From a virus (lineage: Duplodnaviria > Heunggongvirae > Uroviricota > Caudoviricetes), in the IMG/VR virus record IMGVR_UViG_3300019376_000001: DNA of 64,000 nucleotides, one strand, 5' to 3'. Both the position numbers and the translations under genes were made by a program. This document shows, piece by piece, positions 36,320 through 37,266 of the stretch. Each line of letters starts with the position of its first letter. The stretch's first letter is position 1. Under the pieces are notes generated by a model. It searched no databases, was not told the origin of the DNA, and was given only the letters and a program-made list of their open reading frames with translations.

Positions 36320-36856
36320 TTATTTAGAAAGTGTGTTGATTATCATACTTCCTACTAAATTTCCTAAAATTGCTAAAATTAAAGTCCAAGACCAAGCGTG
36401 TGCTACGCCGAGAACAATAACATTTGCAATGCAATGTTGAAAACCACAGAAGATAAATAGAGGGACTCCATACAATATTCCAACATAAGTCCCTCTCTTA
36501 AACAAATCAACACATATGTACATAATCATTCCGCAGAATACGGAACGAATAAAAAATGCTACTGAAAAATCCCAACTCGCAACTTTTTCCAGCGCTACTG
36601 GGATTAACTGTGGTGAGCAATAGCTAAGTAGTAAACCAAACACATAGCCAGCAACAAGGTTGATTACCAAAATCTTGGCTAATTCAGCCTTTCTATCTTT
36701 CCAATAATAGCCAGCTCTGCCGGTATACAAGTCAGCCTGTAGGTAACAAACGCCCATTAGTCCAAAAGCAAAAAGCACGGGGCCAAGCGGATTGCCAAGG
36801 AATAATAAAACCGCAACTCCAAACCCAATAAGGATGGAGGCCAGGATACTTTTCAT
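36320..36856 (-). CDS. polytopic membrane protein (possible small transporter)
   Basis: 178 aa; about 5 hydrophobic segments. Confidence 0.45.
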   Translation of the reverse strand: MKSILASILIGFGVAVLLFLGNPLGPVLFAFGLMGVCYLQADLYTGRAGYYWKDRKAELAKILVINLVAGYVFGLLLSYCSPQLIPVALEKVASWDFSVAFFIRSVFCGMIMYICVDLFKRGTYVGILYGVPLFIFCGFQHCIANVIVLGVAHAWSWTLILAILGNLVGSMIINTLSK

Positions 36857-37266
36857 TAGAGTTCGGACCTAATCTTCATGAGGAGTTTGCCGAGGTTGTT
36901 CTCGCCGACACCCCTACATACGCCCCAATAGGTGTCGTTCCACCAGTTACCTTCAACGAGCTCTTCATTTCCGGTCGCCTTTAACTTCGCCGCCAGTTCA
37001 GGGTCTGCGAACTTTTGACGGAGCGCAGTTTCCATAACTGATAGTTTCACTTCTTCCCAATCTGGGCGCAACTTAACGCTACGACCCATTTTCTTAGACT
37101 CACCAGGAGTAGCCGCACGTGAGATGTTAATGCGCTCCACCATATCGAGAGTCTTCATCGCTTGGAAGTAGTGCTCAGTAGACGGGAAGGTAAGCTTCCC
37201 ATCACGAACAGTACAAGGGTAGAAGTTACTTAAAAATGCAAATTCGCCATCGAACTTATCAATCAT
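36856..37266 (-). CDS. NADAR (YbiA-like) domain protein
   Basis: 136 aa; FLSNFYP...EHYFQAMK...DWEEVKLSVMETALRQKF...LVEGNWWNDTYWG pattern of NADAR/DUF1768. Confidence 0.75.
   Translation of the reverse strand: MIDKFDGEFAFLSNFYPCTVRDGKLTFPSTEHYFQAMKTLDMVERINISRAATPGESKKMGRSVKLRPDWEEVKLSVMETALRQKFADPELAAKLKATGNEELVEGNWWNDTYWGVCRGVGENNLGKLLMKIRSEL

Follow-up and report, generated by a model that had tools for sequence, protein, structure and literature searches.

Guanine is modified with ADP-ribose (ADPr) by the toxin DarT1, and the modification is undone by a NADAR antitoxin (PMC11543638). Phages carry NADARs as well, and the orphan phage enzymes named AdfN, from T4, Bas32 and Bas60, counter DarTG1 (Johannesman et al. 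2025, PMC11825919). Here, we describe a NADAR gene located on the minus strand at 36856-37266 of a 64,000-nucleotide stretch of phage DNA from virus record IMGVR_UViG_3300019376_000001; this whole stretch is referred to below as the window. The first-pass annotation of the window had proposed the gene as a plausible anti-toxin or anti-defence factor. Since AdfN function has already been shown experimentally (PMC11825919), the anti-DarT idea is not new, and the gene is a further example of what is published for phage NADARs rather than a novel system.

The tested NADAR classes, including Escherichia coli YbiA and T4 gp30.3, hydrolyse guanine-linked ADP-ribose (G-ADPr) on DNA and RNA in vitro (PMC11125620, PMC11833690), an activity also supported across tested subfamilies by a further study (PMC12945103). 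YbiA-type and 'NADAR'-type enzymes remove cytidine-linked ADP-ribose (C-ADPr) too (PMC12945103). None of the tested NADARs reverses the thymidine-linked ADP-ribose made by DarT2 (PMC11125620, PMC11825919), and NADARs are inactive on ADP-ribose linked to 5'- or 3'-phosphates (PMC11833690). The general statement of the first-pass annotation, that NADARs reverse DarT-type ADP-ribosylation of guanine, thus stands for DarT1 and guanine (PMC11543638) and does not extend to DarT2 and thymidine. AdfN of Bas32 and Bas60 neutralise DarT1 without any phage context; AdfN-Bas32 does so in E. coli, and with it RB69, T5 and Bas25 are rescued on DarTG1 hosts (PMC11825919). In the structure of a Phytophthora NADAR (PnNADAR) with bound ADP-ribose, the residues E43, K50, R79, W89, R93, E125, D130 and W133 either touch the ligand or take part in catalysis (PMC11543638). 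The position equivalent to E125 splits the subfamilies, with Glu in the YbiA type, Asp in the BC4488/DarG1 type and His in the T4 type.

The NADAR gene and its predicted active site

The open reading frame (ORF) starts with ATG, stops with TAA and encodes 136 amino acids (aa), which form the NADAR core without an N-terminal extension. Its position agrees exactly with the first-pass annotation, and all five motifs behind the NADAR/YbiA assignment were located, namely FLSNFYP at residue 11, EHYFQAMK at 31, DWEEV at 69, METAL at 78 and LVEGNWWNDTYWG at 103. The assignment was borne out by the Pfam profile PF08719 (NADAR/DUF1768), which scored 91.3 bits (E 1e-25; gathering cut-off 35.1 bits) and was covered from position 9 to 162 of 163. 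The family phrog_1017 of PHROG also matched (E 1e-44), and 6,733 database proteins match the protein at E <= 1e-10. Among the NCBIfam models, TIGR02464 (riboflavin-intermediate N-glycosidase domain) was passed marginally, with 78.0 bits against a cut-off of 73.7, and NF053876 (DS-32 NADAR anti-phage protein) was failed, with 51.5 bits against 240. The defence models of PADLOC and NCBIfam placed the protein in no known defence system, its sole PADLOC match being a weak one to the candidate PDC-M42C. Moreover, dN/dS values of 0.07-0.17 against the orthologues on related contigs indicate that the gene is under purifying selection. A chance ORF is ruled out by the profile score, the fold, the invariant active site and the dN/dS values, and the gene is confirmed as genuine, intact and correctly identified from the start.

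The candidate active-site residues are E31, K38, R62, W70, K74, E105, D111 and W114, which correspond in this order to E43, K50, R79, W89, R93, E125, D130 and W133 of PnNADAR; the only exchange is Arg to Lys at K74. None of the eight positions varies among 37 relatives, the most distant of them 57% identical. An AlphaFold model that drew on 37 relatives reached a mean pLDDT of 96.9 and showed the fold of the NADAR superfamily, a helical core with small flanking beta-sheets that is superposable on solved NADARs. The TM score was 0.86 for E. coli YbiA (2b3w) and 0.84 for ADPr-bound PnNADAR (8bau), with an rmsd of 2.1 Å, and the fit to the DarT1-linked NADAR of G. lovleyi (8bat) was poor (TM 0.55). 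The position that splits the subfamilies is occupied by Glu105, within an LVEGN segment that aligns with LVE-H in YbiA and LYEAS in PnNADAR; as judged from this alignment, the protein carries the YbiA-subfamily signature (de Souza & Aravind; Schuller et al. 2023).

We compared the protein with NADARs of demonstrated activity. AdfN-Bas32 (bas32_0066 of Escherichia phage IrisVonRoten, recognised through locus tags) is 47% identical over the full length (BLASTP, E 8e-44). YbiA is likewise 47% identical (E 3e-29), with a score below that of AdfN-Bas32, and T4 gp30.3 has no detectable pairwise similarity to the protein (BLASTP E 48). In a neighbour-joining (distance) tree, AdfN-Bas32 is sister to the clade holding our protein and YbiA falls outside; this tree contains few references and no bootstrap, and AdfN-Bas60, the E. 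coli C7 DarG1 and the sigma70-linked NADAR of enteropathogenic E. coli (EPEC) are not among the references. By sequence, AdfN-Bas32 is thus the nearest experimentally tested relative, and at this level the proposed anti-toxin or anti-defence role is supported.

No ADP-ribosyltransferase or DarT was found among the ~65 scanned proteins of the 64 kb window (the genome being ~190 kb), and therefore the NADAR is an orphan within the window. As expected for an AdfN, it is phage-encoded, has no cognate DarT in the window and is homologous to the validated AdfN-Bas32. We hypothesize, with a probability of roughly 60%, that the protein is catalytically active as a stand-alone AdfN-type N-glycohydrolase, an 'orphan antitoxin' that would erase host-imposed guanine ADP-ribose from phage DNA; catalytic activity, nucleic-acid substrate and anti-defence phenotype are the parts that we infer. 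A host ADP-ribosyltransferase, either DarT1-like or pierisin/ScARP-like, would attach ADP-ribose to guanine N2 in phage DNA, and the NADAR would remove it during infection, possibly also from cytosine or from RNA guanines. The ADP-ribose moiety would be bound by K38, R62, W70, K74, D111 and W114, and the N-glycosidic bond between ribose and base would be cleaved by E31 and E105, restoring a replicable template and releasing free ADP-ribose. The same phage also encodes a macrodomain related to DarG, which speaks for this reading: such macrodomains are the second class of DNA-ADPr erasers known. Moreover, the neighbours of this NADAR subfamily in isolated phages are SbcC (AR9), a helicase/primase (KLPPOU148) and nrdB-DHFR-ThyA-RNase H (Bas32), a recurrent DNA-replication and repair neighbourhood that fits a DNA-directed role.

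Several points weigh against it. The YbiA-type model TIGR02464 is passed, if narrowly, and the identity to YbiA equals that to AdfN-Bas32. The protein is a near-neutral minimal core (pI 6.6, net charge 0) that lacks the N-terminal DNA-binding extension, the electropositive segment thought to bind DNA in DarG1. Despite hydrolysing G-ADPr in vitro, YbiA and T4 gp30.3 leave cells unprotected against DarT1 (PMC11125620), so membership in a NADAR subfamily does not guarantee the phenotype. The reading also presumes a host that carries a guanine-directed ADP-ribosyltransferase. Finally, the coupling of the gene to a membrane channel and its NAD-metabolism surroundings, both presented below, could point to a small-molecule substrate instead.

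Gene order and promoters around the NADAR gene

On the upstream side, the ATG of the NADAR gene overlaps the TGA stop (ATGA) of an 81-aa Cys-rich/coiled-coil ORF (37263-37508, minus strand), for which profile searches of Pfam, PHROG and PADLOC gave no significant family match; a gene of 76-83 aa occupies the same position in the related contigs L001-L007. On the downstream side, the TAA stop overlaps the ATG of the next gene (TAATG), which implies translational coupling between the two. This gene (36320-36856, minus strand) encodes a membrane channel of 178 aa with six helices, of the formate/nitrite transporter (FNT) type (PF01226, 45.8 bits vs 34.6), in which LYTG and FQHCIAN were read by eye as FNT signature motifs. 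It follows the NADAR gene directly in L001-L007. The channel had a single match among 50,697 phage records and no sequence match in the PDB. Outside the clade of related phages, no FNT gene was found beside a NADAR, which there stands alone in unrelated contexts. Cellular FNT relatives, for example in Candidatus Saccharibacteria (58% identity), closely follow a gene for a conserved protein of 162-168 aa (L100:3500-3988, L103:1075-1581). That this partner of the cellular short FNTs might be a NADAR was rejected (hhalign probability 0.65%), and the partner is without family assignment. Overall, the channel gives no functional lead for the NADAR.

The transcriptional layout was read from an extended -10 promoter, TTGATT-N14-TGnTATAAT, of which the window holds 22 copies, all on the minus strand, when 0.04 are expected by chance. 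The consensus can also be written TTGAYTTTT...TGnTATAAT, with an AT-rich spacer, and further copies lie at 2109-2137, 33578-33606 and 62095-62123 (minus strand). The copy between the FNT gene and Sir2 (TTGATT-N14-TGaTATAAT, 36281-36309, minus strand) starts a Sir2-YqeY-Thg1 block. The nearest copy upstream of the NADAR gene (41430-41458, minus strand) starts a block of exonuclease, RNA ligase-like, AAA_28 kinase-like, small ORFs, NADAR and FNT genes. Because of these promoter positions, the NADAR and FNT genes belong to the block opened by the DEDD exonuclease and the RNA ligase-like gene, and Sir2-YqeY-Thg1 is the next block. Within the NADAR block, an intrinsic terminator-like hairpin with a T-run, GGGGCTTCGGCCCC (38270-38283, minus strand), lies upstream of a 149/155-aa ORF and is possibly an attenuator. 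The order small ORFs-NADAR-FNT-Sir2-YqeY is kept in relatives down to 65% NADAR identity. A further metagenomic contig, L017, carries a 63%-identical NADAR (5001-5420, plus strand) and, 2.5 kb away, a second and longer one of 245 aa (7879-8616, minus strand), which places two NADAR paralogues at a single locus.

The Sir2 gene (35474-36244, minus strand; PF02146, 178 bits) is the second gene downstream of the NADAR gene, with one gene between, in agreement with the first-pass annotation, which had placed the NADAR two genes from Sir2. One could therefore think of a writer and eraser pair, in which Sir2 would ADP-ribosylate a host or phage target and the NADAR would reverse or limit this modification. 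The conserved NADAR-FNT-Sir2 order is consistent with such a pair, as is comparative genomics tying sirtuins to Macro, NADAR and ARG erasers in phage toxin-antitoxin-like modules (PMC9503650). However, the protein passes the equivalog model of CobB-type NAD-dependent deacylases (NF001752, 276.7 bits vs 221), which is not the ADP-ribosylating sirtuin class, and the tested NADARs target base N-glycosidic linkages and not protein ADP-ribosylation. Moreover, a consensus promoter separates Sir2 from the NADAR and FNT genes, in L007 an extra gene comes between them, and no Sir2 was found near the NADAR homologues of AR9, KLPPOU148, Bas32 and phage OC. Given this promoter and the homologues without a nearby Sir2 in other phages, the proximity is lineage-specific and weak evidence, and we regard a functional pair as highly improbable.

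The two blocks also bring the NADAR gene close to genes of RNA metabolism. An RNA ligase-like protein of 477 aa (39056-40489, minus strand; weak TIGR02306 match) shares its block, and a YqeY/GatB-like protein (35023-35514, minus strand) and a Thg1-like tRNA-His guanylyltransferase (34083-35012, minus strand) follow. Together with a SLOG (YAcAr) protein encoded ~8 kb from the NADAR gene (45477-45851, minus strand), these flanking genes look like a set for RNA/tRNA repair and nucleotide signalling. Moreover, 35 tRNA genes, four tRNA-Met(CAT) among them, form an array on one strand (50384-63747, minus) with small ORFs interspersed; the array also includes a PD-(D/E)XK endonuclease (53857-54312) and an AAA/STAND-like ATPase (57863-58975).

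In such surroundings, the NADAR might be an accessory of RNA or tRNA repair, either clearing ADP-ribose by-products of 2'-phosphate removal or de-ADP-ribosylating tRNA guanosines. An association of this kind has been proposed before (PMC9503650); NADARs do remove G-ADPr from RNA, including tRNA-type substrates (PMC11833690, PMC12945103), and the NADAR gene shares its block with both the RNA ligase-like gene and the DEDD exonuclease. Yet no Tpt1/KptA, 2H or PNK gene was found among the ~65 window proteins scanned, and the terminator-like hairpin lies between the RNA ligase segment and the NADAR segment. The RNA-end version is further disfavoured by the inactivity of NADARs on phosphate-linked ADP-ribose (PMC11833690), and the RNA-base version is a substrate variant of the AdfN-type eraser favoured above. 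As a role of its own, we consider repair very improbable.

NAD and ADP-ribose genes of the phage

The window belongs to a large phage, as indicated by its tRNA genes, phage-type replication genes, endolysins and related metagenomic contigs of ~190 kb; contigs of 150-200 kb carry NADAR orthologues in the same gene order. Nevertheless, a megablast search with the 33-41 kb segment of the window against the 50,697 phage records gave no match and hence no close sequenced relative. The window encodes DnaB, gyrase A and B, ThyA, DHFR, RNase H, PhoH and an NAD-dependent DNA ligase (7620-9566, minus strand), and its endolysins carry Amidase_2, M15 and SH3 domains, which suggests a Gram-positive host. 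We also noted a full-length sigma-70 encoded by the phage (42049-43074), a flotillin/SPFH protein (20877-22409) and an 830-aa protein (30749-33241, minus strand) with Vault repeats and the shoulder domain of the Major Vault Protein (PF11978, 94 bits), which is kept in L001 and L004 and is unusual for a phage.

Within 12 kb of the NADAR gene lie, besides Sir2, a macrodomain gene, a Prs/Nampt pair, NadE and a nicotinamidase-like gene. The macrodomain (25773-26276, minus strand) is a stand-alone protein of 167 aa that is related to DarG and lacks the DarT-binding half. It matched positions 1-138 of 329 of the PADLOC DarG model (E 5e-11) and PDB entry 5m3i (E 9e-6); the NCBIfam model antitoxin_DarG was far below its cut-off (E 5e-10), and there was no Pfam Macro match at 1e-3. 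The DarG segment 'FPTKKHW', which we take to hold the catalytic Lys, aligns to 'FAQNNYGYDG' in the phage protein. This Lys may thus be absent, as in BT1257-like macrodomains, and besides the NADAR the phage may have in this protein a further orphan eraser of ADP-ribose.

NadE (NAD synthase, 24980-25771, minus strand) and an isochorismatase/nicotinamidase-like protein (30079-30651, minus strand) accompany a phosphoribosyltransferase of the Nampt/Namat family (26276-27748, minus strand; PF04095 and PF18127; NF006629, 427.6 bits vs 405). Three genes away from the latter lies a divergent gene of the Prs (PRPP synthetase-like) family (29123-29896, minus strand; PF14572), which remains below the cut-offs for true Prs (TIGR01251, 100.7 bits vs 113) and is a candidate Adps. 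The phage NAD+ reconstitution pathway NARP1 consists of Adps and Namat (definition in bioRxiv 10.1101/2024.02.11.579819). The Pfam signature of our two genes (PF18127 and PF04095 with PF14572) and their proximity match this definition, which makes them a candidate pair, be it Adps/Namat or Prs/Nampt. Judging from its predicted genes, the phage consumes NAD+ for replication and carries several genes for NAD+ supply. The co-location of NADARs with phage NAD-salvage genes has been noted earlier (PMC9503650).

These genes bear on the main alternative role, that of a small-molecule N-glycosidase in phage NAD/ADP-ribose metabolism, which we consider unlikely. In one variant, the enzyme would perform YbiA-like damage control on ribosylamino-pyrimidine intermediates. 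In another, it would cleave N-glycosidic derivatives of ADP-ribose, such as base- or amino-acid-linked ADPr immune signals or cyclic ADP-ribose (cADPR), and feed ADP-ribose to the NARP1-like Prs/Nampt pair. The YbiA-like traits of the protein agree with this (TIGR02464 at 78 bits vs 73.7, the Glu105 signature and 47% identity to YbiA), and so do the NadE, Nampt-like, Prs-like, isochorismatase-like, macrodomain and Sir2 genes within 12 kb, the SLOG gene 8 kb away and the translational coupling to an FNT-type small-anion channel. However, the NAD genes fall into promoter-defined blocks apart from that of the NADAR, the FNT coupling is limited to the clade of related phages, and the cellular short FNTs have an unrelated protein as their partner. 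Moreover, no riboflavin-pathway gene was present among the ~65 window proteins scanned, degradation of immune signals has so far been shown for no NADAR, and the nearest tested relative works on DNA-ADPr in vivo (PMC11825919).

The AdfN-type eraser might also be extended to an island that strips and recycles ADP-ribose. In this scheme, the NADAR and the macrodomain would strip phage nucleic acids, the former taking guanine- or cytosine-linked ADP-ribose and the DarG-like macrodomain thymine-linked ADP-ribose or other ADPr esters. From the released ADP-ribose, the NARP1-like Prs/Nampt pair would rebuild NAD+ together with NadE and the nicotinamidase-like enzyme, and this would sustain the NAD-dependent DNA ligase of the phage; the part of the FNT channel would be the transport of a small anionic product or precursor. 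To our knowledge, a coupling of nucleic-acid de-ADP-ribosylation to NAD+ reconstitution has not been described previously; we consider this extension improbable.

If the AdfN-type function is true, counter-defence of this kind is not confined to coliphages but is also used by large phages that infect Gram-positive gut bacteria, and guanine-directed ADP-ribosylation of DNA or RNA would be a defence that such phages meet in nature. The NADAR gene alone adds no new principle. A single genome with a NADAR, a DarG-like macrodomain, a NARP1-like pair, NadE, Sir2 and an NAD-dependent ligase nevertheless offers a compact natural test bed for mark removal and NAD+ rebuilding.

Comparison with characterised NADARs

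The DarG1/BC4488-type antitoxins (G. lovleyi 8bat, E. coli C7) share with our protein the superfamily and the predicted hydrolysis of guanine-N2 ADP-ribose. They differ from it in having Asp in place of Glu, in their N-terminal beta1-beta2-alpha1 extension, in fold (TM 0.55) and in the adjacent DarT1. Membership in this type is ruled out by Glu105, the missing extension, the TM score and the absence of a DarT among the window proteins scanned. T4 gp30.3 (AdfN-T4), of the 'phage NADAR' family, is like our protein a phage orphan with a core-only NADAR, and it has the equivalent E and K residues at the same spacing of seven positions. The T4 type, however, has His at the position of Glu105 and needs its Tevenvirinae context in vivo (PMC11825919); Glu105 and the BLASTP E value of 48 to gp30.3 rule it out here.

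The Phytophthora nicotianae NADAR (8bau) shares the core fold and seven of the eight ADPr-contact residues one-for-one, with R93 replaced by K74. Unlike our protein, it is eukaryotic and has an N-terminal extension and an internal extension of the fold. E. coli YbiA (2b3w) gives the best match to a solved structure (TM 0.86) and has Glu at the signature position, in line with the pass of TIGR02464 by our protein. YbiA acts on riboflavin intermediates as an N-glycosidase, and in vitro it also hydrolyses G-ADPr and C-ADPr. In contrast to the phage gene, it is chromosomal, in the LexA-controlled dinG-ybiB neighbourhood; its N-terminus is ~17 residues longer, and the protein is basic (pI 9.4, compared with 6.6 here).

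AdfN-Bas32 (149 aa) is, like the protein described here, a stand-alone phage NADAR of comparable size without a cognate toxin, with the same catalytic residues and the motif LVEGNxWxDTYWGVCRGxG. It comes from a T5-like coliphage, whereas our gene belongs to a ~190 kb phage with a probable Gram-positive gut host, and its neighbours are nrdB-DHFR-ThyA-RNase H instead of small ORFs and an FNT channel. For Bas32 the activity has been demonstrated, and for the phage studied here it is predicted from the sequence.

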